Assembly: GCA_949288095.1 (NCBI GenBank) | Contig: CASEIX010000038.1 | Location: 1-54,135, forward strand | Length of the DNA: 54,135 nt | Source: an uncultured Eubacteriales bacterium | GTDB lineage: Bacteria > Bacillota > Clostridia > TANB77 > CAG-508 | Direction of reading: 5' to 3' | Part shown: positions 2,396 through 31,311 of the stretch, piece after piece | Numbering within the stretch: position 1 is the stretch's first letter | How the letters are laid out: each line of letters starts with the position of its first letter | The notes under the pieces: model-generated | Told to the model about the DNA's origin: nothing | Database searches by the model: none | The model's input: the letters and a program-made list of their open reading frames with translations, nothing else | Program-made: the position numbers and the translations under genes

Positions 2396-2462
2396 AGCAA
2401 AATTCATTGATATTTAGCCACTTTCAGTGTTATTCAAAAAAACTGAAAGGAGAACTATTGTT

Positions 2463-3017
2463 ATGGATTTTATACCTTATAAAGTAAATGAATATCTTGA
2501 AAACACTTTTTATCAAGTTCCAAAAGAACTATTTACAAACCCTTATTATAAAAAGCTTAATTCAGATAGTATACTCTTATATGCTCTTTTACTTGATAGA
2601 CTATCTGTTTCTAGAAAAAATGAATGGATTGATGAAGATGGTAATGTATTTTTACTATTTGCAAGAAAAGATGTTGAAAAGAAATTAAAATTATCAGATA
2701 AGACAGTTACTAAAGCTTTTAAACTATTAGCTGAACACAAGCTAATATATGAGAAAAGATTAGGCTTTAGAAAAAAGAATATTATTTATGTTGGAAAAAT
2801 AAATCATGTACCAACTGCAGAAATTATGAATCGTAAAAATTACGACTCAAGAAACGGAGAAACTACGATTCAGGAGTCGGAGAATTTACGATGTAGTAAT
2901 AATAAGTATAATAAGAATAATTATAGTAATACACCCCAGAGAAAAAATTCATATTCAAATTACGAACAAAGAGTTTATGACCCTGAACAATTAGAAAAAT
3001 TATATTGTAATGTTTAG
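2463..3017 (+). CDS. RepA_N-type replication initiator
   Basis: FYQVPKELF..Y..L..DSILLYALLLDRLSVSRKNEWIDEDGNVF is the RepA_N signature; ATG 2463 follows AAAGGAG. Confidence 0.88.
   Translation: MDFIPYKVNEYLENTFYQVPKELFTNPYYKKLNSDSILLYALLLDRLSVSRKNEWIDEDGNVFLLFARKDVEKKLKLSDKTVTKAFKLLAEHKLIYEKRLGFRKKNIIYVGKINHVPTAEIMNRKNYDSRNGETTIQESENLRCSNNKYNKNNYSNTPQRKNSYSNYEQRVYDPEQLEKLYCNV
2828..2931 (+). repeat. Three 23-bp iteron-like repeats plus AT-rich tract inside repA (putative oriV)
   Basis: Units GAATCGTAAAAATTACGACTCAA / GAAACGGAGAAACTACGATTCAG / GAGTCGGAGAATTTACGATGTAG, then an AT-rich run; RepA_N origins typically lie within the gene. Confidence 0.7.
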
Positions 3018-3036
3018 AAAAAGGAGATTTAAAATT

Positions 3037-3429
3037 ATGGAAAATGTAGAATTAAAAGATAGATGTATAGATGAAAAAACAGGAATTGAATATATAAGAA
3101 ATGGTGATTATTATTTGCCAAATCTAGTATTAGCAGAACAAAAGAAAATAAAATTAAACAAATATGGTCGTTTAAGATTAGACTATTTAAAGAACCATAA
3201 AAAAGCAGAATATGCTATTTTATTTATGGATAATAAATTAACAGACCACTTAGAAGAAGTACAAGAAATTGCAACTAAAAGAGTAGAAGAAATTATAAAA
3301 TCATTAAAAGAACAAAGTAATTTAACAGAAGAAATGAAAAATACAGACCAACTTTATTGGGTTGGAATGATGAATAACTTTAAAAACCAAGCTGAAGAAA
3401 TTGTATTAAAAGAATTAATTTATGTATAA
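3037..3429 (+). CDS. tnpV: TnpV family protein
   Basis: YIRNGDYYLPNL, YGRLRLDYLK, WVGMMNN..AEEIV signatures; ATG 3037 after AAGGAG. Confidence 0.88.
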   Translation: MENVELKDRCIDEKTGIEYIRNGDYYLPNLVLAEQKKIKLNKYGRLRLDYLKNHKKAEYAILFMDNKLTDHLEEVQEIATKRVEEIIKSLKEQSNLTEEMKNTDQLYWVGMMNNFKNQAEEIVLKELIYV

Positions 3430-3550
3430 CCTCTATTTCTATTTTAAAAATTTAGGAATTATTAAAGAATAAATTAGCTTTTTTAGGAGAAGAAATTTAA
3501 AATTTTCTTCTCTTTTTTGATGTAAAAAAATTTGAAAGGAGCAAATAAAA

Positions 3551-4042
3551 ATGAGAAATAAAGAATTAAAAGTAACAGAAGAATTTACTAATTTATTTGA
3601 TTATGAATTAGTAATTTATAAAAATATTTTAATAAAAGGAAGAAGTAAAATTACTTTTTATAATTATATTATTGTAACAAGAAAAGGCATTTTTGCAATT
3701 AAAACTAAAACAATTTTAGGTCGAATGGTAACAGATAAATATAAAGTAAAATGGAAATCTTATATAGGTTTTATTCCATTTATTTTTACAAATCCACCAT
3801 TAGATGTTAGTTATAAAAGTTGTGATTTAAATTTTGTTTCAGATTGTGATATGGATAAAATCATTCCAATTTCAATTATAAAAAATAAAGGAAAAAGACA
3901 TTTTTATATCGATATGAATTACACACAAAAAGAAAAATTTTATTATGAATTATACCATCAAGAAGATATATTTTCTGATAAAGAAGTTGCAAAAATTTGT
4001 GAGCTAATAGAGAAAAAATCACTTGTTTTTAGTAAAATTTAG
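3551..4042 (+). CDS. NERD-like (PD-(D/E)xK fold) protein with degenerate catalytic residues
   Basis: IYKNILI...YNYIIVTRKGIFAIKTKTILG follows the NERD pattern IDhlvvt..GifviEtK...G but has N and K at the acidic positions. Confidence 0.55.
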   Translation: MRNKELKVTEEFTNLFDYELVIYKNILIKGRSKITFYNYIIVTRKGIFAIKTKTILGRMVTDKYKVKWKSYIGFIPFIFTNPPLDVSYKSCDLNFVSDCDMDKIIPISIIKNKGKRHFYIDMNYTQKEKFYYELYHQEDIFSDKEVAKICELIEKKSLVFSKI

Positions 4043-4072
4043 TCACACTTAAAGTTGGCACTATTTTGAAAG

Positions 4073-4207
4073 CAAGCATCGCATTTATACTCCCGTATAA
4101 ATACCGCTTGTCAGTTTTAATGTAAAACTGAATTATAGGGAATTACTTCCCCAATCCCCTTAATAATATAAGAATTTTTCTGGCAGTCTTTTAGAGAAAA
4201 GACTGTC
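4073..4207. other. Putative oriT
   Basis: Hairpins ATTTATAC-TCCC-GTATAAAT (4083-4102) inside CAAGC/GCTTG, TCAGTTTTA-ATG-TAAAACTGA (4111-4131) and a hairpin at 4182-4207, directly upstream of mobC; GCTTG resembles MOBP nic contexts. Confidence 0.65.
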
Positions 4208-4225
4208 AATTTTTTGTAAAGGAGA

Positions 4226-4558
4226 ATGAAAATTATGAGAAAAAGAAATATAAAAAAACAGATATGGTTAGATATAAAAGAAGATGAATTATTAAAAAGA
4301 AAATCAAAAGAAGCAGGTTTAAAAGAAGCTGAATTTATTAGAAGTTTAATTAAAGGTTATAGAATAAAAGCACAACCAACTGAAGAAATAAAATCTTTTC
4401 AAAGAGATTTATATGGTATAGCAAATAATATAAATCAAATTGCTAAAGTTGCAAATTCTAGATACAGTGTTTCACACGATGATTATAAATATATTTCAGA
4501 TACTTTATCTGATTTTATTTTAAGATTTGAAAGAAAAATTTATTCAAGACAAAAATAA
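4226..4558 (+). CDS. mobC: MobC relaxosome accessory protein
   Basis: N-terminal ribbon-helix-helix (AGLKEAEFIRSLI) and IANNINQIAKVAN motif. Confidence 0.9.
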   Translation: MKIMRKRNIKKQIWLDIKEDELLKRKSKEAGLKEAEFIRSLIKGYRIKAQPTEEIKSFQRDLYGIANNINQIAKVANSRYSVSHDDYKYISDTLSDFILRFERKIYSRQK

Positions 4559-4572
4559 AAGGAGGTATTTTA

Positions 4573-5904
4573 GTGGCAATTACAAAATATAAAGTTATTA
4601 AGAAAAATTTAGATGCAGTAATAAATTATGTGATGAATGGAGAAAAAACTGAAAATGGTATTTTAGTATCTGCAATAAATTGTATGCCTCAAACAGCATA
4701 TTCTCAAATGATGCTAACTAAAAAATCATTTCATAAAGAAGGTGGTAGATTAGGTTATCATATAATACAATCTTTTAATGGTAATGAAATTTCTCCAGAT
4801 AAATGTAATAAAATTGGAATAGAACTTGCTCAGCAACTATGGGGAGATAAGTATCAAGTTATAATTTGTACTCATACTAATAAGAAAAATGTTCATAATC
4901 ATATCGTTTTAAATTCGGTTTCATTTATTGATGGAAGTAAATATCATAACTCAAATGTAGAAATTGCTTTACTTCGAGAAACAAATGATGACATTTGTAG
5001 GAAACATGGACTATCTATAATTAAAAGCACAAAAGCTACTACAGTATCTGATATATCAAAAAGTAGAATTGCGAATTATAATCGTAATTCTGGAAAAATG
5101 GAACTAATAAAAGCTGATATTGATGAAGCAATTAAAGAAGCAACTAAATACCAAGAATTTATAGATCTATTAGCTTTTAAAGGTTATTATATCAAAAAAT
5201 CTAATGGTTCTATATCTGTTTCTACTCCGTACTATAATAGAAATATAAGGCTTGCTAGAGCATTTGGAGAAGATTATATTTTTGATAATATTAAAACTAG
5301 AATATATCAACCTACTTTATATGATAGATATTTAAAAAGAACTAACAATGAAAAAGTATATAAAGTAAGAATTTATGATGGTATAAAAATTAATCAAGAA
5401 AAATTAAAAACTTCATCTTTTTATAGATTATATGTTCATTATTTATATTTGCTTGGGAAATTACCACCTAAAATTCATTATGAAGAAAGAACAAAAGAAT
5501 ATTATAAAGAAATAGATAGATTTAATAAATTAGCAGATGAAATGAATTTAATATGTACTTATAATTTGGAATCAAAACAAGATGTTCAAAATTTAAGAAT
5601 GAAGTATATTGAAGAAGTTACACCTTTAAAAGCAGAACGAGGAAAACTAAGGCAGTTATATAAGAAAGCTACTAATGAGGCAGATAAAACTATTATACAA
5701 GCTAAAATAGATATTCTTACTGAAGATATTAACAAAATAAACTCTAAAATTCAGACTTGCAAACGAATTATTACTAAAGCTGAAAAAGGCGAAAAAGAAA
5801 CTATTTTAATAAATAATAGAGTATCTGAAAATCAATTAAATAGTGAGCATGAAAATTCACTTAATAAACATAAAAACAAAAACAAACAAGAGCTAATTTC
5901 TTAG
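4573..5904 (+). CDS. MOBP-family relaxase
   Basis: INYV (catalytic Tyr), GYHIIQSF, HTNKKNVHNHIVLNSVS (3H motif). Confidence 0.93.
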   Translation: MAITKYKVIKKNLDAVINYVMNGEKTENGILVSAINCMPQTAYSQMMLTKKSFHKEGGRLGYHIIQSFNGNEISPDKCNKIGIELAQQLWGDKYQVIICTHTNKKNVHNHIVLNSVSFIDGSKYHNSNVEIALLRETNDDICRKHGLSIIKSTKATTVSDISKSRIANYNRNSGKMELIKADIDEAIKEATKYQEFIDLLAFKGYYIKKSNGSISVSTPYYNRNIRLARAFGEDYIFDNIKTRIYQPTLYDRYLKRTNNEKVYKVRIYDGIKINQEKLKTSSFYRLYVHYLYLLGKLPPKIHYEERTKEYYKEIDRFNKLADEMNLICTYNLESKQDVQNLRMKYIEEVTPLKAERGKLRQLYKKATNEADKTIIQAKIDILTEDINKINSKIQTCKRIITKAEKGEKETILINNRVSENQLNSEHENSLNKHKNKNKQELIS

Positions 5905-5915
5905 CTCTGTTAAAT

Positions 5916-6383
5916 TTATTTACTTATATGCAATATTTTGAATATAAAGTTTTTAAATCTAGCAAAAAATGATTCTTTATATTCTATTAACGCTGTATTA
6001 GTATTGTTTTTATATGTTTCTATATTAGTAATTTCTGTATTCTTATTTGCCTTTTTAAATATATCATCTGGATTATATTTTTCTCTTTTTTCTAGTTCTT
6101 CCTTTTTTTGATTTAAATCTAATATTTCTTTTATCTTAACTTTTTGTTCTTCTGTTGCAAAATAATCTCTAAAAAGATTAACTATAATAGCATTTGCTTC
6201 TGGAGAAATATTTTGCTCTGATAAATCAATTTCTGGATTTATTACAAAAACATAATCGTTATCCTTATTATCTTTATAAAATTCTATTTTTTCTTTAGGT
6301 ATTTTATTATATTCTCCTTCTGGAAAATGTTTTATTATCTCTAATACTTCTGTATATGCTTTAGCATAAATTGTATTAATCAT
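5916..6383 (-). CDS. Uncharacterised 'AYTEV..KIP' family protein (partner of upstream repeat protein)
   Basis: Start overlaps the upstream stop by 8 nt; N-terminal ~75 aa align with 13597-13821. Confidence 0.8.
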   Translation of the reverse strand: MINTIYAKAYTEVLEIIKHFPEGEYNKIPKEKIEFYKDNKDNDYVFVINPEIDLSEQNISPEANAIIVNLFRDYFATEEQKVKIKEILDLNQKKEELEKREKYNPDDIFKKANKNTEITNIETYKNNTNTALIEYKESFFARFKNFIFKILHISK

Positions 6384-7414: not shown

Positions 7415-8713
7415 TTAAATAACAATTATTGGATCTCCTAATCCTAAATCGTTTCGTTCAAATTCATCATAGTGTTCTTCTAATGAAATAGAGATTTTTT
7501 CTTTTTCTATTATTTTTATTTGATAATTTTCAATGTCTTTTTCAATTTCTTCAATATTCTGATATCTTGATTCTGGTTTATCTGCAAGACATTTTTCAAT
7601 TATTGTATCTAAATTTCTCATATTTGAACTATCATAATTTTTATATAAATGTTCCCTATTTGTTCCTCTAGTAAACATTCCTGTTACATACCATTGAATT
7701 ACTTGTCCAATAGAATATATATCCATTGTTTTTTGTGGTAGAGTTCCTTTAATAGATTGCTCTGGAGGTGAAAAATTTCTATTTCCTAAAAGCTCTCCAT
7801 ATTTTGTATTTCCTGTAAAATCGTAATTTTCAGGATTATAATATGCTATTCCAAAGTCTGAAATAATAATATTTGAACTCTCATCTATTAAAATATTTTC
7901 TGGTTTTAAATCTCTATGAATTATTCCTGACTTATGTACTTCCTTAAAAATCCTACATAGCTCTAGAAATAAATTTATTGCTTTTTCTTCAGTTATATCA
8001 TTATTTTTTAATTGCCCCTTATATTGTTTCATAATGATATAGCTTATTATAGCACCTTCAAACTCTACTTCGTCATACAAATATTGTTCTACAATTCCTG
8101 GGATCTTTTGTAGAGTCATTAATACATTAATAAATTCTTCTTTAAATCGATTTCTTTTTCCTTCATCTTTTTGATATAAAACTTTTATAGCAACATTCTT
8201 TTTGTTCAAAGTACCAAATAATACTCTACCATTCCCACCACTATTTCCATCTGCATAAATATCTGTTATAATTCCATATTTAGTTGTTAATCCTTCTTTT
8301 TGAATCTTTCTACAAAATTGAGTAATGATAGCATTATATTCATCTTGGCTTATAATTTTTTCTTTATTTATTTCTGGTATTACTTGGGTTGAATAACTAA
8401 ACTGATTTTCTTGTTGTGCATTGTTTAGCTGCTTTTCATAACTTGTAAGTTTCTTTTGATTACTTATTATATCTCTCTGCAAATTAGAAATTTCTTTGTT
8501 TAATGTAGCATTCTTTTTAGATAAAGAAGCATTTTTTGATAAACAACTCTTTATTGTTGTATCACTTTTGGTAGTTCTAATCTTTTTATCATTTTCAGAA
8601 ATTTTTCTGTTATTATCGTTTATCTCTTTTTGCTTATCAGAAACTTTTTTATTAAGTTCAGCTATTTTGTTTCGTGTTCTTCCTATATTTGATATTAAAA
8701 TGTCTATATCCAT
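7415..8713 (-). CDS. Hanks-type Ser/Thr protein kinase with N-terminal coiled coil
   Basis: GNSGGNGRV, VAIK, HRDLKPENIL, SDFG, SPPEQ, DIYSIG; ~100-aa heptad-rich N-terminus. Confidence 0.93.
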   Translation of the reverse strand: MDIDILISNIGRTRNKIAELNKKVSDKQKEINDNNRKISENDKKIRTTKSDTTIKSCLSKNASLSKKNATLNKEISNLQRDIISNQKKLTSYEKQLNNAQQENQFSYSTQVIPEINKEKIISQDEYNAIITQFCRKIQKEGLTTKYGIITDIYADGNSGGNGRVLFGTLNKKNVAIKVLYQKDEGKRNRFKEEFINVLMTLQKIPGIVEQYLYDEVEFEGAIISYIIMKQYKGQLKNNDITEEKAINLFLELCRIFKEVHKSGIIHRDLKPENILIDESSNIIISDFGIAYYNPENYDFTGNTKYGELLGNRNFSPPEQSIKGTLPQKTMDIYSIGQVIQWYVTGMFTRGTNREHLYKNYDSSNMRNLDTIIEKCLADKPESRYQNIEEIEKDIENYQIKIIEKEKISISLEEHYDEFERNDLGLGDPIIVI

Positions 8714-8727
8714 ATATTCTCCTTCTT

Positions 8728-9549
8728 TTAGTTTTTAATTGTAGCAATATTTTCAAAATAATTTAAAACATTATCAATAACATCTTTTATAGGTATTTCT
8801 AGCCAATTGTTATTTGCTGTGTTAATTCTTGATTGAAATCTGTTATTGTTTAGAATATTTGTTAATCTGATATGTATATCTTTTAATTCATTTTCACGCA
8901 TTGTTTCATCTTGAAAAATTAAAATATCTATAAATTTTATTAGATTGTCCTTATCTAAATTTTCATTATTAATTAAATAATAAAAATCAAAAATATCTTT
9001 AAATCTTGTAGAAGTAATACCAAATTTTAATAATGATTTTAACTTTTCTACAATTATTTGCTCTTTAGAATTTATTAGTAAGCTAACACTTTCATCAATT
9101 ATATTAAAATCAAAATAGTACTCATCTTGCTCCATATCAAAGTATTTATGAACTCCAATATCTAGTTTAGAACTTATTGAATATTTATTTTTATCAGTTA
9201 GCTCAATATAAACTCTTTTTCCATCATAATCTTGATGATGTAATGGTTCAATCTTTCCAGTAACTTTTATTTTTACACCATCATCTGTATTGTTTAATTC
9301 TTTTATAAAATTAAGAATTGATTTATCTTCCAAAGAATATTTTATAAAGTCAATATCCATATCTCGAGTTGCGCGACGCATATCTTTAGAAATATTATGC
9401 ATTACAACTCCACCTTTTACAGTTATATTCTTATTGTATTTGCTATTTCCAATTTTAAGTAAAACAATATCTTGTGCAACTTTTGGAATTGCATCATCTT
9501 CAGAATAACCTGCTGTTACATATTTATTTACTAATTCATATATATTCAT
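8728..9549 (-). CDS. abiEii: AbiEii-family nucleotidyltransferase (type IV TA toxin)
   Basis: VKGG, RATRDMD, EKL and RFKDIFD motifs. Confidence 0.88.
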   Translation of the reverse strand: MNIYELVNKYVTAGYSEDDAIPKVAQDIVLLKIGNSKYNKNITVKGGVVMHNISKDMRRATRDMDIDFIKYSLEDKSILNFIKELNNTDDGVKIKVTGKIEPLHHQDYDGKRVYIELTDKNKYSISSKLDIGVHKYFDMEQDEYYFDFNIIDESVSLLINSKEQIIVEKLKSLLKFGITSTRFKDIFDFYYLINNENLDKDNLIKFIDILIFQDETMRENELKDIHIRLTNILNNNRFQSRINTANNNWLEIPIKDVIDNVLNYFENIATIKN

Positions 9550-10091
9550 TAAAACACCTCGTCTTGTATTATTTCAAAAATTTTATCTCCATTTACAAAA
9601 TATTGTAAATATTCTTCTATCTTTTGTGTATCTAATGAATTTGCTAGTTTTCTGTAATTAGATATAATTTCTTTATATAAATCATATCCAATTTGATTTT
9701 TGTTTCTAGCTAAATCAATTAGCATTCTTTCTTTGTCATATATATTTATTTTAATTCCTTCATAATTAATTTCGGTTTTTCCTAAATTATATAATTCTTC
9801 TTTCATACGAATTTGTTTTATTTTATTAGAAGATATCATTCTGTTATTTCTATCTGTTGCTAAATATATTTTATCTGGAATAACATCTGTTAAATTAAGA
9901 TAATAATAAGCTGAATAAGAAGTAAATGCTCCATATGGATATTTCTTCATAACAATATCTAAATAATGTACACTAGGCACATCAGAGTATATTCCTTTTT
10001 CAATTTTATATATTTCTTTATTTTCTAAGGCTTTTCTAATTTGATAAGTACTTTTATACTTACTTTTTATTTCACTATGATTATATAACAT
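9549..10091 (-). CDS. abiEi: AbiEi-family antitoxin / transcriptional regulator
   Basis: wHTH with IYKIEKGIY, LTDVIP, IYDKERMLID; TAATG overlap with abiEii. Confidence 0.85.
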   Translation of the reverse strand: MLYNHSEIKSKYKSTYQIRKALENKEIYKIEKGIYSDVPSVHYLDIVMKKYPYGAFTSYSAYYYLNLTDVIPDKIYLATDRNNRMISSNKIKQIRMKEELYNLGKTEINYEGIKINIYDKERMLIDLARNKNQIGYDLYKEIISNYRKLANSLDTQKIEEYLQYFVNGDKIFEIIQDEVF

Positions 10092-10111
10092 ACTTTTTTA
10101 CCTCCAAAAAC

Positions 10112-10164
10112 ATTTTAACCTAATTCGCTCCATAAGTCAATAGTTAGGGAGTGAATTAGGTTAA
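10112..10164 (-). promoter_or_regulatory. abiE promoter with overlapping 17-bp inverted-repeat operator
   Basis: TTGACT(10140-10135)-17-TAAAAT(10117-10112); TTAACCTAATTCGCTCC / GGAGTGAATTAGGTTAA match at 16/17, like AbiEi autorepression operators. Confidence 0.8.
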
Positions 10165-10236
10165 TTTTTTTATTTTAATTATGACACTGAATAGATTGTA
10201 CAAATTCAGTGCCATAGTTAAATTTTTATTATATTT

Positions 10237-11166
10237 TTAATCTATATTTGGTATTTTTACAGAAATTCCATCATCAGTATGTATTACATTACGAGATATA
10301 GTTTTTCCTCTACTTTTATATACATTAGCTTTATTCTTACATTGTGGTGTATCATATTCAGCTTTTGGATTATTCGCGATAAATGCTTTTTCGCAGAAAT
10401 TACATATTTTTAATAATCTAACATCTTGAGCCATTTGCATAGAATAAGATATATCAATAGCTTGTTTTAAATAATTAATTGTAAATCCAAAGCTATTGTT
10501 ATAATATAAATCTTCTATCTTGTGTTCTAAATGATTTACACTTAAAAATGGTAATTTCATTGTTAAATGTTTATTATCTAATGCCCAATAAAAATGCTTA
10601 TACAATGACCTTGCATAATTTAAAACCAATTCAAGTGGTTCTGCATAATGTTCTGAATATATTAAGTATTCATTTATAAAAGATGTTAAATAATCTTCTT
10701 TTCTATTATTGCTAGCTACATCTTTACATTTTTTTATTAAACTATTTATTTCTCTCTTATTTAATTTTGGTAAAAAGAACTTTAAATATTCCTCTGTATT
10801 TATAAAATCTAAATTTTCCTTTCTATTTATATAAAAAGGATCTCGTACAGCTACTTTTTCATCTAATACAAAGTACTTATTTATAGCTAGGTCAATCATA
10901 AATCCAAAAGAGCCATATTTAGCATAGTAATTTAATAATTCAAAATCTTCTATTGGTTCTTTAAAAAATTGTTTTTTTCCTATATTTAATGTTTCAATTA
11001 ATAAATCATCAATATGTTCTGTTATGCTAATAGCTTTCTTAGTTGCTTTTTCTTCTGGCATAGCATATCTTTTTCCATTAATTTCTTCAATTTTATATTT
11101 ACTATAAACATAGCAAAATGGTGATGATTCAAGTCTTAAATTTGTTTTCATTTTATTCACTCCCAA
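10237..11166 (-). CDS. CGNR-like zinc-finger protein (probable regulator)
   Basis: C-terminal LKICNFCEKAFI...YDTPQCKNKANVYKSR resembles zf-CGNR; divergent from xis-int. Confidence 0.6.
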   Translation of the reverse strand: MGVNKMKTNLRLESSPFCYVYSKYKIEEINGKRYAMPEEKATKKAISITEHIDDLLIETLNIGKKQFFKEPIEDFELLNYYAKYGSFGFMIDLAINKYFVLDEKVAVRDPFYINRKENLDFINTEEYLKFFLPKLNKREINSLIKKCKDVASNNRKEDYLTSFINEYLIYSEHYAEPLELVLNYARSLYKHFYWALDNKHLTMKLPFLSVNHLEHKIEDLYYNNSFGFTINYLKQAIDISYSMQMAQDVRLLKICNFCEKAFIANNPKAEYDTPQCKNKANVYKSRGKTISRNVIHTDDGISVKIPNID

Positions 11167-11194
11167 ATTTTTTCAAGAATTTTCTTGTAAGCTA

Positions 11195-11224
11195 TTGACA
11201 AATATAATCAATTGCTGGTAGAAT
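11195..11224 (+). promoter_or_regulatory. sigmaA promoter toward the structured RNA and xis
   Basis: TTGACA-18-TAGAAT with extended TG. Confidence 0.7.
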
Positions 11225-11397
11225 ATTGCTACACAGTAATCGGTTGTGTTGTAAAATCGCTTACCGTTGTGTAGTAATCTTTAGTAGGCTATTGATAGGC
11301 TTCAAGTACTGAATTATACTGATGTAGAGCCATTGATTGTAAGTTATAACAACTTACTTTTTTAACACCTAATCAGTAAGCGATTATCTATAATAAT

Positions 11398-11426
11398 AGT
11401 ATACAACGATTACTAAAAACTGTCAA
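11398..11426 (-). promoter_or_regulatory. sigmaA promoter toward the CGNR-like gene, convergent with the 11195 promoter
   Basis: TTGACA-17-TATACT on the minus strand. Confidence 0.7.
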
Positions 11427-11489
11427 GAGAATTAAATAGAATTCTCAAAAGCACATTGAAAACTGAATACCAAATAGCTAGATACAAAT

Positions 11490-11641
11490 AATGATACACT
11501 TGCATAGCCACAGCTCGAGCGTGAAAAAACCGTCGCAAGCAATGGGTGCAACTCGGACGGAGTCGGAGTGGTGAAATTCCAGTGGAGTATGAAAATACCA
11601 TTTAGCATTGCCCAGAATAGAGGGACAGGAAGAATATCATT
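11490..11641 (+). ncRNA. Candidate structured cis-acting RNA upstream of xis
   Basis: GC-rich island closed by AATGATA/TATCATT; internal TTGCA..CCA/TGG.TGCAA, GAAA-capped hairpins, GCAATG/CATTGC pairing. Confidence 0.6.
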
Positions 11642-11672
11642 CAAAATTTTCACGAAAGGAGGAGTATGTTAT

Positions 11673-11867
11673 ATGGGAGATACAGTTAAAGAACTTCCTA
11701 GATTTTTCTCAACAGAAGATGTTAGAAAAATTTTAAAAATAGGAAATAAAGCCTGTTTAGAATTATTTCATAGAGAAGATTTTCCCTGTGAGAGATTTGG
11801 AAGAGGTTATAGAATTGCAGAAGAAAGTTTTAATGAATATTTTAAAACAAGACGAGTTTACAAATAA
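11673..11867 (+). CDS. xis: Excisionase (HTH_17-like)
   Basis: FFSTEDVRKILKIG..ACLELFHREDFPCERFGRGYRI pattern; AAGGAGGAG RBS before ATG 11673; upstream of integrase. Confidence 0.85.
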   Translation: MGDTVKELPRFFSTEDVRKILKIGNKACLELFHREDFPCERFGRGYRIAEESFNEYFKTRRVYK

Positions 11868-11903
11868 AAAAAGAAGATTTAAATATGCGACATTTAAACC
11901 TTC
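11866..11903 (-). terminator. Hairpin with a U-tract on the minus strand
   Basis: GAAGATTTAAAT/ATTTAAACCTTC (11/12) preceded by A7 on +. Confidence 0.6.
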
Positions 11904-11937
11904 AAATACAATTTTATGTATTTAAAAAACTGAAAGA

Positions 11938-12006
11938 AAAACTATTGCTATAGAATTCCTTAACTGATATAATTATACCATAAAATCCAATTATAGCAAT
12001 AGTTTT
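11938..12006. promoter_or_regulatory. Overlapping sense/antisense promoters within a 15-bp inverted repeat upstream of int
   Basis: AAAACTATTGCTATA/TATAGCAATAGTTTT; + strand TTGCTA-17-TATAAT, - strand TTGCTA-16-TATAAT, both with extended TG. Confidence 0.65.
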
Positions 12007-12039
12007 CCTTAAAATATTACAAAAAGGAGATAACGAATT

Positions 12040-13407
12040 ATGAAATTAAAAGGAATAACTGTTGGCACATATATTTCAAAAAGACCAAAAGGAAAATTTG
12101 ATGAATCAATATGTGCAAGTTGTGAAAATAACAAAAATAAGAACATTGACAAAGAAAAACAATATGAATTATGCAAAGGATGCGATAAGTTTTATGTATC
12201 AAAAACTTGTAAAGCTGTATTAACAACTGGACGAGATCAAACAACAGGTCAAACTCAAAGAAAGTCATTTGTTGCTGATACCGAACAAGAAGCATTAGAT
12301 AAAGCTTTAGATTATAGAATAAATCTAAACAAAAACGGTGGTCCGAGAATTATAACAAAAACAAATAAAACTTTAATAGATTTAGTAAGACCAATGATAG
12401 AAGAACAATTTAAACTAAATAGAATTAAAGAATCCACTTATAAAAGAAAATTAGACACATTAAAACAAATTGGAAACGCATCATTTGCAAGAAAGCCAAT
12501 TGCAAAAGTAACAAGAGATGAAGTAGTTAATTATCTTGCTAAACTAAAGACTTATTCAAAAACAACAATAAAGCAAAATTATGAACTACTATGTATGGGA
12601 TTTGGAGAAGCTTACCATCAGCAAATAATAAATGATAACTTTTTAGATGGTTATAAAAGAATTGAAAAGCCAAAAAGTGAATACAACGGACATCACAGAA
12701 TAGCACTTACAATAAATGAACAAAGAAAGCTAATTCAATTTTTAAATGATGTAGATTATTCAAATTTCAAACACAAATATCTATTTTTGTTATTGCTTAG
12801 TACAGGAATGAGAATAGGTGAAGCTTTAGTGTTAGATTATACTAAAGACATTGATTTAGAAAAAGGAATTGTAATAATTAGAAGAACACAAACTAAAGAT
12901 ACAAAAGGAAAATCTCGAATAGGAGAAACAACAAAAACTTTTTCTGGTCAAAGAACTATTGATTTAAATGATATTAGTAGAAAAGCACTTGAAGATGCTA
13001 TGAACCATATCATTCCAAATAAGTTCCATTTACTATTCTATAATCCAACAAATAAACAATATGGATTATATGAAGAAGCTAGTATTAATTCTGCATTAAA
13101 ACGAGCAGGATTAAAATTAGGAATTGGACTTTATGAAGAAATTAATTCTAAAGGCAAAAAGGTAACAAGAACAGATATACACACTCATATGCTTAGAGGA
13201 ACTTTTGCAACAAGATGTGCAGAAGCAAAAATTGCTCCAGTAGTATTAAAAGAAATATTAGGTCATTCTGATATATCTATTACAATGAAATACTACATTG
13301 ATATAGATACTGATTTTATTAAAGCTGAAAATAAAAGTGTAGTTAATTATTTAATAAATAAAAATATTTTTGGAGTAATACAAGATAAAGACAATCTGGC
13401 TAGTTAA
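12040..13407 (+). CDS. int: Tyrosine recombinase / integrase with Cys-rich N-terminal insert
   Basis: TGMRIGE, HMLR, LGHSDISITMKYY catalytic motifs; CASC and CKGC in the N-terminus. Confidence 0.95.
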   Translation: MKLKGITVGTYISKRPKGKFDESICASCENNKNKNIDKEKQYELCKGCDKFYVSKTCKAVLTTGRDQTTGQTQRKSFVADTEQEALDKALDYRINLNKNGGPRIITKTNKTLIDLVRPMIEEQFKLNRIKESTYKRKLDTLKQIGNASFARKPIAKVTRDEVVNYLAKLKTYSKTTIKQNYELLCMGFGEAYHQQIINDNFLDGYKRIEKPKSEYNGHHRIALTINEQRKLIQFLNDVDYSNFKHKYLFLLLLSTGMRIGEALVLDYTKDIDLEKGIVIIRRTQTKDTKGKSRIGETTKTFSGQRTIDLNDISRKALEDAMNHIIPNKFHLLFYNPTNKQYGLYEEASINSALKRAGLKLGIGLYEEINSKGKKVTRTDIHTHMLRGTFATRCAEAKIAPVVLKEILGHSDISITMKYYIDIDTDFIKAENKSVVNYLINKNIFGVIQDKDNLAS

Positions 13408-13441
13408 AATTATACAAAACTAATAAAAAACATTGGAACTA

Positions 13442-13495
13442 TGCGGAATTTTAAAGCATTTATTACTTTAAATGTTCCGCAAAAGTGTTCCGTAA
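13442..13495. repeat. Integrase arm-type sites, right end
   Basis: Inverted TGCGGAA 13442, TGTTCCGCAA 13473, TGTTCCGTAA 13486. Confidence 0.7.
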
Positions 13496-13557
13496 AATAT
13501 TATACAAACGCTGAAAAGCTTAAAATATCAAAGGAAATAGTACAAAGTGTCGAGTAC

Positions 13558-13569
13558 TCACCTCGACCA
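13558..13569 (+). repeat. attR core (displaced tRNA-Pro 3' end)
   Basis: TCACCTCGACCA followed by the hairpin AAGAGACTT..AAGTCTCTT. Confidence 0.88.
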
Positions 13570-13596
13570 GAAAAAAAGAGACTTTTTACAAGTCTC

Positions 13597-13821
13597 TTAA
13601 TTTGTTTTTAGATAATGAAAATAAATTTGATTAAGTATAGCAATTGTATCATCATCTAAATATTGTTCATCACCAGGAATATATGAATAACTATATGTAT
13701 TACTTTTTCTTCTTTCTATTTCGTTCCAAACTGTTAAGGGTATTTTTTCTCTATCCTTTTTATCCAGACATTTTAAAATGGAATAAACTTCTGTAAGTCT
13801 AGCGGAAATATCATTTATCAT
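13597..13821 (-). CDS. Short 'TEV..KIP' family protein (partner of the ART gene)
   Basis: MINDISARLTEVYSILK..EKIP..EQ..AI aligns with 5916-6383; starts 6 nt after the ART stop. Confidence 0.75.
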   Translation of the reverse strand: MINDISARLTEVYSILKCLDKKDREKIPLTVWNEIERRKSNTYSYSYIPGDEQYLDDDTIAILNQIYFHYLKTN

Positions 13822-30390: not shown

Positions 30391-31038
30391 GTGAGTAAAC
30401 TGGAAATACAAAAACCAAAAGTATTCAAAATGGAAGAAATAGCAGATTTCGAAAAAGAAATGATAGAAAATTCTGAAAAATTTGAAATAAGAGAAAAACA
30501 ATTTAAAGATATAGAAGAGGAAAATATAAAAGCAGAAAAATATGAATTTAGAAATTGTATTTTTGAATCTTGCAAAATGATACACTCTAATTTTGAAAAT
30601 GCTTATTTTTCAGATGTTATATTTCAAAATTGTGATTTTTCAAATTCGAATTTTACTAGAGCAGGATTTAATAGAGTAGAATTTATTAATTGCAAGTTAA
30701 CTGGATGTGAATGGATAGAAGCAGATATATTTAATACATATGTCAAAGAATCCAATTTTGCTTATGTGAATTTTTCAGAGGCAAATTTTAGGGATGTAAA
30801 AATGGAAAATACGAATTTACAAAGTAGTAGTATGAATGAAGTGACATGGAAAAATATTGTATTTTCAGAATGTAATCTTACTAAATCTGAATTGGTTAGA
30901 ACAAAACTAAAAGGAATTGATTTTTCTACATGTGAATTTAATGGAATTACTGTCAACATATCAGATTTAAATGGTGCTATTGTGAATGAATTTCAAGCAT
31001 TGGAATTATCAAAACTATTAGGATTGAAAATTAAATAG
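30391..31038 (+). CDS. Pentapeptide-repeat protein
   Basis: Repeated xxFxx/xxLxx pentads (CDFSN SNFTR AGFNR VEFIN CKLTG). Confidence 0.9.
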   Translation: MSKLEIQKPKVFKMEEIADFEKEMIENSEKFEIREKQFKDIEEENIKAEKYEFRNCIFESCKMIHSNFENAYFSDVIFQNCDFSNSNFTRAGFNRVEFINCKLTGCEWIEADIFNTYVKESNFAYVNFSEANFRDVKMENTNLQSSSMNEVTWKNIVFSECNLTKSELVRTKLKGIDFSTCEFNGITVNISDLNGAIVNEFQALELSKLLGLKIK

Positions 31039-31143
31039 ATTAAAGACAATCAGTAAAAAGCGGTAAATTTTGGTAGTAATTTACTGCTTTTTGTGGTATA
31101 ATATATATGTGTGTTAAAAATAGAGATTATACGAGGAGGAATC

Positions 31144-31311
31144 ATGAATCGAGAAGAAAAATTTGAATTTGATATAGCCAATTTAAAACAAGATTTAGCC
31201 ATAGAAGATATGCATGTTACAGAAGAAGATGTGGCACTATTACGAAGATATTTTGATAATGAAATCACAATGCCTGAGATGATTGATATAATAAAGAAAA
31301 CAACCATGTAA
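31144..31311 (+). CDS. VbhA/FicA-like antitoxin
   Basis: 55 aa, LAIEDM resembles the inhibitory xxxE(G/N) motif; directly upstream of fic. Confidence 0.7.
   Translation: MNREEKFEFDIANLKQDLAIEDMHVTEEDVALLRRYFDNEITMPEMIDIIKKTTM

Follow-up and report, generated by a model that had tools for sequence, protein, structure and literature searches.

Background

In Tn916, the spacer between orf8 and xis encodes canT, a cis-acting processive antiterminator RNA (Wirachman and Grossman 2024, PMC11658703; this and the other statements from that paper draw on part of its text). A 452-bp canT fragment (nucleotides (nt) 126-577) allows transcription from a foreign promoter to pass the Tn916 terminators T1, T2 and T3, the gatB terminator and three tandem foreign terminators, and it works in cis only and in one orientation only. 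Two mutants, canT(delta162), which lacks nt 229-390 after the orf8 stop codon, and canT(S3), in which ATA is changed to TGC from nt 283 after that codon, show a decrease in conjugation of about 100-fold and no lowering of excision. The orf5 protein is dispensable, as orf5 start-codon and stop-codon mutants of Tn916 conjugate normally. The authors described structure predictions as hard to interpret and did not pursue sequence or structural analysis (PMC11658703). Here we analyze a locus upstream of xis and int at positions 11451-11641 of CASEIX010000038.1, a 54,135-nt contig of an uncultured Eubacteriales bacterium (assembly GCA_949288095.1) whose whole length is referred to as the window. The locus carries an RNA of Rfam family RF02913, the pemK motif, and is likely a canT-type antiterminator.

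A second point of reference is boxA, which is bound by NusB and S10 in ribosomal RNA (rRNA) leaders and in the nut sites of phage lambda (PMC12691694, from part of its text). For the pemK family, no function was found in print: the main text of the 2017 source paper does not contain the word pemK (its supplements were outside the search), and the papers that mention RF02913 are, by title and among the matches listed, method or database papers. Our literature search linked pemK to neither canT nor boxA. The words pemK, Rfam, boxA, NusB and rRNA are absent from the available part of the canT paper (PMC11658703), and pemK, Rfam and boxA are absent from a 2026 preprint by the same laboratory. The system described here is of a known kind; neither the identification of pemK RNA with canT nor the pairing of the RNA with boxA was found in print.

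A pemK RNA upstream of xis

An initial annotation, made from the letters of the window alone, described a GC-rich island with a series of complementary words upstream of xis and proposed a cis-acting RNA, either an antiterminator or a domesticated group II intron fragment. The words and the composition were as described. AATGATA lies at 11490-11496, TATCATT at 11635-11641, GCAATG at 11539-11544 and CATTGC at 11606-11611; TTGCA..TGCAA, TGG-TGAAATT-CCA, GTAT-GAAA-ATAC and CCC/GGG all fall within 11500-11624; and G+C content is 47.6% in 11488-11630 against 26.5% for the whole window. A cmscan comparison with Rfam, which the annotation had suggested as a check, returned six matches in the whole window, namely five transfer RNAs (tRNAs) and RF02913. 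The latter covers model positions 1-61 of 61, with an E-value of 2.9e-7 over the whole window and 4.8e-9 in a local scan of 11200-12100. Given this covariance-model match, the island is more than chance, and the plus-strand match bears out the claim of a structured, strand-specific RNA element before xis and int. The features of the RNA are as follows.

11451-11469 (+): boxA-like element GCACATTGAAAACTGAATA, from its likeness to the rRNA leaders of the same genome
11454-11462 (+): boxA core 9-mer CATTGAAAA, identical in those rRNA leaders
11477-11483 (+): outer helix P0, 5' strand GCUAGAU, from RNAalifold and pair counts
11488-11585 (+): pemK-motif core RF02913, from the cmscan match (55.2 bits against a gathering score of 34.8) and its alignment
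11500-11504/11547-11551 (+): P1, with a 38-nt insert in the window
11552-11558/11562-11568 (+): P2, with compensatory changes in 3 of 25 relatives
11569-11571/11579-11581 (+): P3, with the loop UGAAAUU
11587-11598 (+): P4 hairpin GUAU-GAAA-AUAC, the three outer pairs present in 25 of 25 relatives
11600-11606 (+): outer helix P0, 3' strand AUUUAGC, from RNAalifold and pair counts
11611-11624 (+): P5 hairpin CCC-AGAAUAGA-GGG, each of its three pairs present in 22 to 24 of 25 relatives
11635-11641 (+): conserved word TATCATT, the 3' closing strand of the initial annotation, uncompensated when its 5' partner changes

Correspondence with canT of Tn916

Locus L054 has the gene order of Tn916: a 143-amino-acid (aa) sigma-like open reading frame (ORF), a 76-aa ORF (orf8, with its stop codon ending at 1218), an 83-codon antisense ORF, a 67-aa Tn916-type Xis and a Tn916-type integrase. 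The pemK match in this locus spans 1501-1601 and starts with ATAATGATAC. When the published mutations are mapped onto L054, delta162 corresponds to 1447-1608 and S3 to 1501-1503, which are the first three bases of the Rfam model. The Rfam core therefore lies inside the canT deletion and S3 destroys its first three bases, which joins the pemK motif and canT. Judged by mapped position, the pemK core is apparently the same piece of RNA as the part of canT whose loss abolishes function, and this coincidence with canT-inactivating mutations argues for the antiterminator proposed in the initial annotation.

The 460-nt orf8-xis spacer of L054 is 100% identical to a spacer of plasmid pCF10 that lies between tet(M), sigma-like and helix-turn-helix (HTH) genes on one side and the excisionase and integrase genes on the other. 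pCF10 contains exactly one pemK match, located between the orf8-like gene and the excisionase gene. Its Tn916-type element is called Tn925. The initial annotation had mentioned similar words before xis in Tn916-like elements, and the same Rfam model indeed matches the orf8-xis spacers of both L054 and pCF10.

Two side observations were made. Upstream of the sigma-like gene of L054, positions 52-281 match Rfam RF03532 (SQ2397, 'cis-regulator of HTH transcription factor') at 229.8 bits. Integrase frames are split, into two ORFs in L054 (1964-3101) and into three in L006 (1915-3077).

RNA architecture

For structural comparison, a core-start pattern was used to collect 36 loci in species-representative genomes. 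Nine rows duplicating others were excluded, as were seven loci that differ in their upstream flank and lack an xis-type region downstream, and the remaining 20 were combined with the window and L008-L011 to give 25 distinct sequences. According to the cmscan alignment, the core consists of the single-stranded AUAAUGAUAC, a closing pair (C11499-G11582) and three hairpins, P1 to P3, all of which are retained in 25/25 relatives with three isolated mismatches.

RNAalifold predicted the outer helix P0 around this core, with 98.3% of cells paired across the 25 sequences. Three of its seven pairs show changes on both sides (U-A to C-G in nine sequences, G-C to A-U in five and A-U to G-C in one), a covariation score reached by 0 of 500 shuffles, and shifting the partner by one to three columns reduced pairing to 41% or less. 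The helix recurs with unrelated sequences in seven of eight sequence clusters, each represented by one locus. When a helix was sought between the 18 nt before and the 27 nt after the core, the longest per cluster was 7, 10, 10, 11, 10, 6, 11 and 11 bp, while the 56 cross-cluster control pairs gave a mean of 5.14 bp and reached at least 7 bp in 11 cases. P0 takes in TAGAT and covaries, so the TAGAT stretch is constrained as RNA and the transcript start lies upstream of 11477.

P0 replaces the closing helix of the initial annotation. The pairing of AATGATA with TATCATT (11490-11496/11635-11641) has 86.3% of cells paired, yet two of its seven pairs are broken without compensation in 10 and 14 of the 25 relatives and its covariation score was reached by 236 of 500 shuffles. 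The competing or pseudoknot pairing of GCAATG with CATTGC also fell away: three of its six pairs are broken in 13 of the 25 relatives, covariation gives it no backing, and it is confined to 12-13 relatives of the subtype with the P1 insert.

By-eye reading of the alignment showed the P4 stem to be one pair longer in the 13 relatives with GUAAU..AUUAC, with loops such as GUAA, AUAA and GAAA; the length of P4 thus appears to vary by paired insertions. No pair of P5 is changed on both sides, and this hairpin, conserved only, is weakly supported. The conserved unit exceeds the 61-position Rfam model and also includes boxA, P0, P4 and P5.

Most loci outside the genus of the window have an additional 5' domain between boxA and core, with GAGCGAGCGAUAAA, a hairpin and GGCGAUGAC; the Rfam scan of the loci assigned it to no other Rfam family. 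In L029-L057 and in L054 1400-1500, the order of this domain is a GCCAAGACC-like word, a hairpin, GAGCGAGCGAUAAA, a hairpin and GGCGAUGAC, and P4 is followed in the same copies by the conserved words CUUGAUGACUUCCC ... GGGGUGUCGAGGACAAAUA. Both the 5' domain and the words after P4 are absent from the 61-position Rfam model.

A boxA-like element

Both 16S leaders of the genome carry AGTACATTGAAAAGTAAACA after a strong promoter, with a hairpin between the two in one of them. Window positions 11450-11469 are identical to these two leaders at 16 of 20 bases (manual count), including CATTGAAAA. In 41 of 52 pemK loci, the 9-mer C[ACT]TTGA[AC]AA occurs on the sense strand within 300 nt upstream of the core, compared with 1/52 for the antisense strand of the same stretch and 0/52 within 300 nt downstream. 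This count used non-identical loci with at least 250 nt on both sides, a limit that excluded L012, L020, L034 and L042, whose flanks are too short. The likeness to a boxA context noted in the initial annotation is thereby upheld, both by the leaders of the same genome and by the family.

Comparable words are found in rRNA leaders elsewhere: GGACCTTGAAAATTGAATAG in two operons of G093, GGACCTTGAAAATTAAACA in G151, and GTACATTGAAAAGTAAACA and GTACATTGAAAAATAAACA in G201. The Tn916-type locus L054 has TGTTCTTTGAAAACTGAATA 157 nt before the core. The idea that boxA tracks the host was rejected. In G201 the rRNA leaders read ACATTGAAAA and the element ACCTTGAAAA, with no clean co-variation, which speaks against a required boxA.

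The rRNA leader of L097 (G201:C2) is almost the same as the leader in the genome of the window, although G201 is listed in another family of the class; the L097 contig may be mis-binned.

Host element and its genes

The RNA belongs to an element whose features are listed below.

2185-2195: attL core CACCTCGACCA, at the tRNA gene 3' end (gene at 2120-2192); found elsewhere in the window only at attR
2344, 2376, 13473 and 13486: arm-type repeats TGTTCCGYAA, four copies in the window by exact-word search
2427-3017 (+): RepA_N gene, by Pfam
3010-3429 (+): TnpV gene, by Pfam
3485-3514, 4181-4208 and 5889-5908 (+): predicted intrinsic terminators, from the terminator scan
3551-4042 (+): NERD gene, by Pfam
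4226-4558 (+): NikA/MobC gene, by Pfam
4573-5904 (+): relaxase gene, by Pfam
11655-11662 (+): xis ribosome-binding site AAAGGAGG
11673-11867 (+): xis-like gene, 64 aa, HTH_17 (PF12728, E 6.2e-6, 26.8 bits against a cut-off of 27)
11941-12004: long inverted repeat separating xis from int, perfectly paired over at least 12 bp; as RNA a hairpin of -17.7 kcal/mol immediately upstream of int; promoter-like sites on both strands inside
12040-13407 (+): tyrosine integrase gene, 455 aa (PF00589, E 9e-23)
13559-13569: attR core CACCTCGACCA, by exact-word search of the whole window
13576-13598 (+): predicted terminator just outside attR, from the terminator scan

The two att cores and the four arm repeats delimit an 11.4-kb integrative mobilizable element in a tRNA gene. 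The RNA stands in the sense orientation before xis and int at one end of the element, and the replication and mobilization genes (2427-5904, plus strand) lie beyond the circularization joint. The terminator scan found six terminators against 0.7 expected, with terminator folds of -12.5 and -15.1 kcal/mol. As a target of antitermination, the initial annotation had pointed to a hairpin at 11873-11903. This hairpin is a weak candidate, and stronger predicted terminators are found across the excision joint at 3485-3514 and 4181-4208.

The inverted repeat at 11941-12004 may terminate or attenuate transcription, or it may bind a protein and contain a promoter for int. The promoter-like site within it recalls the 2026 preprint from the canT laboratory, which states that Pint-derived transcripts do not contain canT and end at T1.

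On the minus strand, the Pfam search left two genes without assignment. The minus-strand cargo at 7415-11166 includes a protein kinase gene (432 aa), AbiEii with a likely AbiEi partner, and a 309-aa protein, which has no Pfam family and is divergent from the promoter region of the RNA. No conjugation genes were found in the host element within the window.

Upstream region and transcription

Upstream of the boxA-like element, the following features were predicted.

11195-11224 (+): promoter-like site TTGACA-18-TAGAAT, 11 of 12 consensus matches
11292-11320 (+): promoter-like site TTGATA-17-TATACT, 10 of 12 consensus matches
11339-11363 (+): terminator-like hairpin GTAAGTT-ATAAC-AACTTAC followed by six T, from sequence and fold
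11426-11398 (-): minus-strand promoter-like site, from the consensus scan, overlapping the repeat at 11427-11446
11427-11446: operator-like inverted repeat GAGAATT-AAATA-GAATTCTC, from sequence

Among 20 aligned upstream regions, the strong promoter TTGACA-17-TATAAT is common to the relatives about 100 nt before boxA and aligns with window 11292-11320. This shared promoter is flanked by GTAATC and GATTAC words, which are also repeated in window 11195-11450. The hairpin at 11339-11363 is present in 6/20 aligned relatives, window included (L001, L011, L064, L075, L081 and L090); it escaped a scan that asks for three G-C pairs. The AGAATT..AATTCT repeat occurs at the same place in most of the 20 relatives (uncounted), and the copy at 11427-11446 may serve as an operator. 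Window 11195-11450 looks like a small regulated leader or a short RNA ahead of boxA.

RNA-library contigs over the stretch came from four runs in three studies. X17 gave one contig of 2691 nt on 11215-13499, with 9 gaps and 121 differing letters, and X20 gave one of 211 nt on 11487-11682. X19 gave a 423-nt contig on 11571-11993 and another of 446 nt, in which 11482-11551 is preceded by a different flank with GGCGAAGA. X18 contributed contigs at 11164-11363 and 11675-11832 only, with none over the RNA, from which absence does not follow. Neither the strand nor the ends of a transcript can be read from contigs, and RNA libraries can hold DNA, so these contigs are no more than compatible with transcription.

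Distribution and neighboring genes

RF02913 has one match above the cut-off in the genome of the window, and it is present in 18 of 61 related genomes (own genome counted), in 34 of 151 genomes of the class and in 0 of 14 control genomes. A search of phage records with window 11440-11900 gave no match. Neighbors were surveyed by comparing 141 downstream ORFs from 55 loci with Pfam; L020, which has no downstream DNA, and the plasmid locus L028 were outside this survey. Within about 1.5 kb downstream on the same strand, a tyrosine recombinase was found in 20/55 loci and a serine recombinase in another 20/55, together 40/55. An Xis-type HTH gene lies downstream in 24 of the 55 (five of them match the Tn916-Xis family), PemK in eight and a ParA-like ATPase in four; in two loci no family was matched. 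Several loci nearly duplicate one another, and the neighbor counts are accordingly not independent. The downstream genes are non-homologous across the family, which fits a general elongation signal.

In the Vescimonas replicon (L028), the pemK RNA follows a sigma-70-family gene and an HTH gene. An ORF annotated as a TnpW family protein (6005-6352) begins inside the pemK core of this locus; either its start codon has been annotated too far upstream or coding sequence and RNA may overlap. A second, divergent copy lies outside the window in its own genome, at about 30950-31240 (-) of contig C6, with GCACATTGAAAATTGAATAG, 20 nt, ATAATGAAACATCCGTCTGGC and then a third hairpin of variant form. This copy, which the own-genome scan did not report, is similar to L018, whose score of 30.4 bits is below the cut-off.

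Discussion

We consider it likely that 11451-11641 is a canT-type cis-acting processive transcription antiterminator RNA in the leader of the xis-int operon. Its parts would be the boxA-like word at 11451-11469, a domain closed by P0 that contains AUAAUGAUAC, the pemK core and P4, and then P5. By homology with canT of Tn916, the nascent RNA would stay with its own RNA polymerase and make that polymerase ignore terminators. In the integrated element, transcripts would yield xis and int and then exit at attR. In the excised circle, they would cross the joint and continue along the repA, tnpV, NERD, mobC and relaxase genes, reading past the terminators at 3485-3514 and 4181-4208, and the replication and mobilization genes would thereby be expressed from the excised circle only. 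Antitermination by this copy, like the identity of its targets, is what we infer from the comparison. As to how boxA might contribute, we rate the chances as about even that it recruits NusB and S10 as in rRNA operons; the canT authors suspect direct binding to RNA polymerase (PMC11658703), an alternative to the NusB/S10 route.

More tentatively, and a little short of an even chance, the whole pemK family may be the core of boxA-coupled processive antiterminators before recombinase, partition and toxin operons of conjugative and mobilizable elements in Firmicutes. These would borrow NusB, S10, NusG and NusA via an rRNA-type boxA, with the folded domain, including the invariant AUAAUGAUAC strand and the UGAAAUU loop, holding the complex on RNA polymerase.

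Other accounts of the locus were weighed against this one. An RNA of the same family could act locally, with a protein or small ligand setting xis transcription or translation in the manner of a riboswitch or attenuator. Rfam files RF02913 as cis-regulatory, the RNA stands directly before the xis ribosome-binding site, and TATCATT and the region of that site are conserved; S3 is also without effect in a 400-bp canT fragment, so the role of the core is not simple (PMC11658703). However, between the RNA and xis we found no terminator/anti-terminator pair and no helix hiding the ribosome-binding site, the downstream genes lack homology across the family, and the Tn916 region acts on far-downstream and foreign terminators while excision of its mutants is not reduced (PMC11658703). 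Local action is therefore unlikely in our judgment. It is more doubtful still that the words act as DNA, with TTGAAA serving a weak xis promoter as its -35 box and with the repeats as operator or integrase/Xis sites, or that the island is a single-strand origin. TTGAAA-17 nt-TAGATA is readable as a weak promoter, a figure legend of the Tn916 paper gives a weak Pxis with poor -35 and -10 boxes (PMC11658703), and operator-like repeats surround the site. On the other hand, the covarying helix P0 takes in TAGAT, rRNA leaders have the same word downstream of their promoters, and canT works from a foreign promoter and in one orientation only (PMC11658703). The single-strand origin, an idea prompted by hairpin loops that read TAGCA in some relatives, was dropped because the Tn916 origin was mapped apart from canT (PMC11658703) and because P0 explains the word in the window type.

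Conservation could also stem from a protein on the opposite strand, encoded like orf5 of Tn916 by the antisense ORFs 11413-11601 and 11432-11653. These two ORFs (62 and 73 aa) span the island and the 83-codon antisense ORF of the Tn916-type locus occupies the same place, but across the structured region no more than 12 of the 25 relatives have an open antisense frame (and 1 of 25 an open sense frame), region lengths run from 149 to 172 nt with differences that are not multiples of three, and the start- and stop-codon mutants of orf5 conjugate normally (PMC11658703), which makes such a protein a very improbable cause. Least probable, to the point of being nearly negligible, is a remnant of group II intron domain I or a self-cleaving ribozyme. 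The intron ancestry suggested in the initial annotation came from a likeness of words only, and it finds no echo in the searches: pemK was the sole match in 11200-12100 on both strands in a permissive Rfam scan (E up to 1), the whole-window scan at gathering scores gave no group II intron match, and no reverse-transcriptase family was matched among 36 predicted proteins (window 127-30119) compared with Pfam.

Several observations weigh against antitermination by a boxA-coupled RNA at this locus. The fold energy of the island is no better than that of shuffled sequences (11451-11660, minimum free energy -41.4 kcal/mol, z = -0.48; in 59 of 200 shuffles the fold was equally stable or more so). 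The boxA pattern was composed once the loci had been seen, and since it is post hoc, the rRNA leaders serve as the independent check; 11 of the 52 loci lack the exact 9-mer and have near matches only. Many loci are close relatives, and counts therefore overstate independence. The active 452-bp canT fragment starts at +126, at TTGAAAAC, and is thus without the first two bases of the boxA-like 9-mer and all that precedes them, yet it is active, as is the 400-bp fragment despite its S3 change (PMC11658703). In the window, the hairpin at 11339-11363 sits between the best promoters and boxA and, being upstream of boxA, is beyond the reach of the antiterminator. The sig7-sig8 genes, which drive canT in Tn916, are absent, no sigma-factor gene lies upstream, and the upstream gene at 10237-11166 is divergent, unrelated and without a Pfam family. 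Finally, the terminator scan found no terminator between attL and repA, and the replication and mobilization module may have promoters of its own, several candidates there having 9-10 of 12 consensus matches, no more than in shuffles.

If the wider reading of the pemK family is correct, a function would be assigned to an orphan Rfam family that occurs in about a quarter of the sampled genomes, and canT would gain a covariation-backed structure and a candidate host cofactor via boxA. The overlap with canT supplies a comparative structure for canT, consisting of the pemK core and the outer helix P0, and predicts processive antitermination for many operons with recombinase, ParA or PemK genes in mobile elements of Firmicutes. 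In this genome, the RNA would provide a way for a small mobilizable element to make expression of the replication and relaxase genes depend on its excision.

Comparison with known systems

The boxA-like word, similar to the rRNA-leader boxA of the same genome, is placed 5' of a structured RNA, much as boxA stands beside boxB. The arrangement differs from lambda nut in that the partner in the window is a multi-helix domain and not a small boxB hairpin, and no N-like protein is known. If our inference holds, the window RNA would work like the antiterminators put (phage HK022), EAR (Bacillus eps operons) and conAn2 (plasmid pLS20), as a cis RNA that renders RNA polymerase terminator-resistant along extended operons of mobile elements (PMC8191782, from part of its text). 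We saw no sequence relation between them and pemK RNA. conAn2 requires the protein ConAn1 for action at a distance, and pCF10 is reported to have a conAn system (PMC8191782), yet its sole pemK match is in its Tn916-type element. As a member of the pemK motif, the window copy scores above the curated cut-off and lies upstream of genes in a Firmicute mobile element; it differs in the 38-nt insert of P1.

In comparison with canT, the window has neither the sig7-sig8 genes nor the 110-nt 5' domain between boxA and core, and its boxA-core distance is 26 nt, as opposed to about 140 nt in the Tn916-type locus. Its host is an 11.4-kb mobilizable element, and its activity is a prediction. The likenesses extend over the whole arrangement. 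Both have the same Rfam core, which covers S3 and lies inside the 162-bp deletion, and both have it at the same place and in the same orientation, directly before xis-int at the end of an integrated element. Both have a boxA-like word upstream and terminators on the path after circularization, and in both an outer helix surrounds the core and P4, formed in L054 by GCAACGA and UCGAUUGC with one bulge (by-eye reading).

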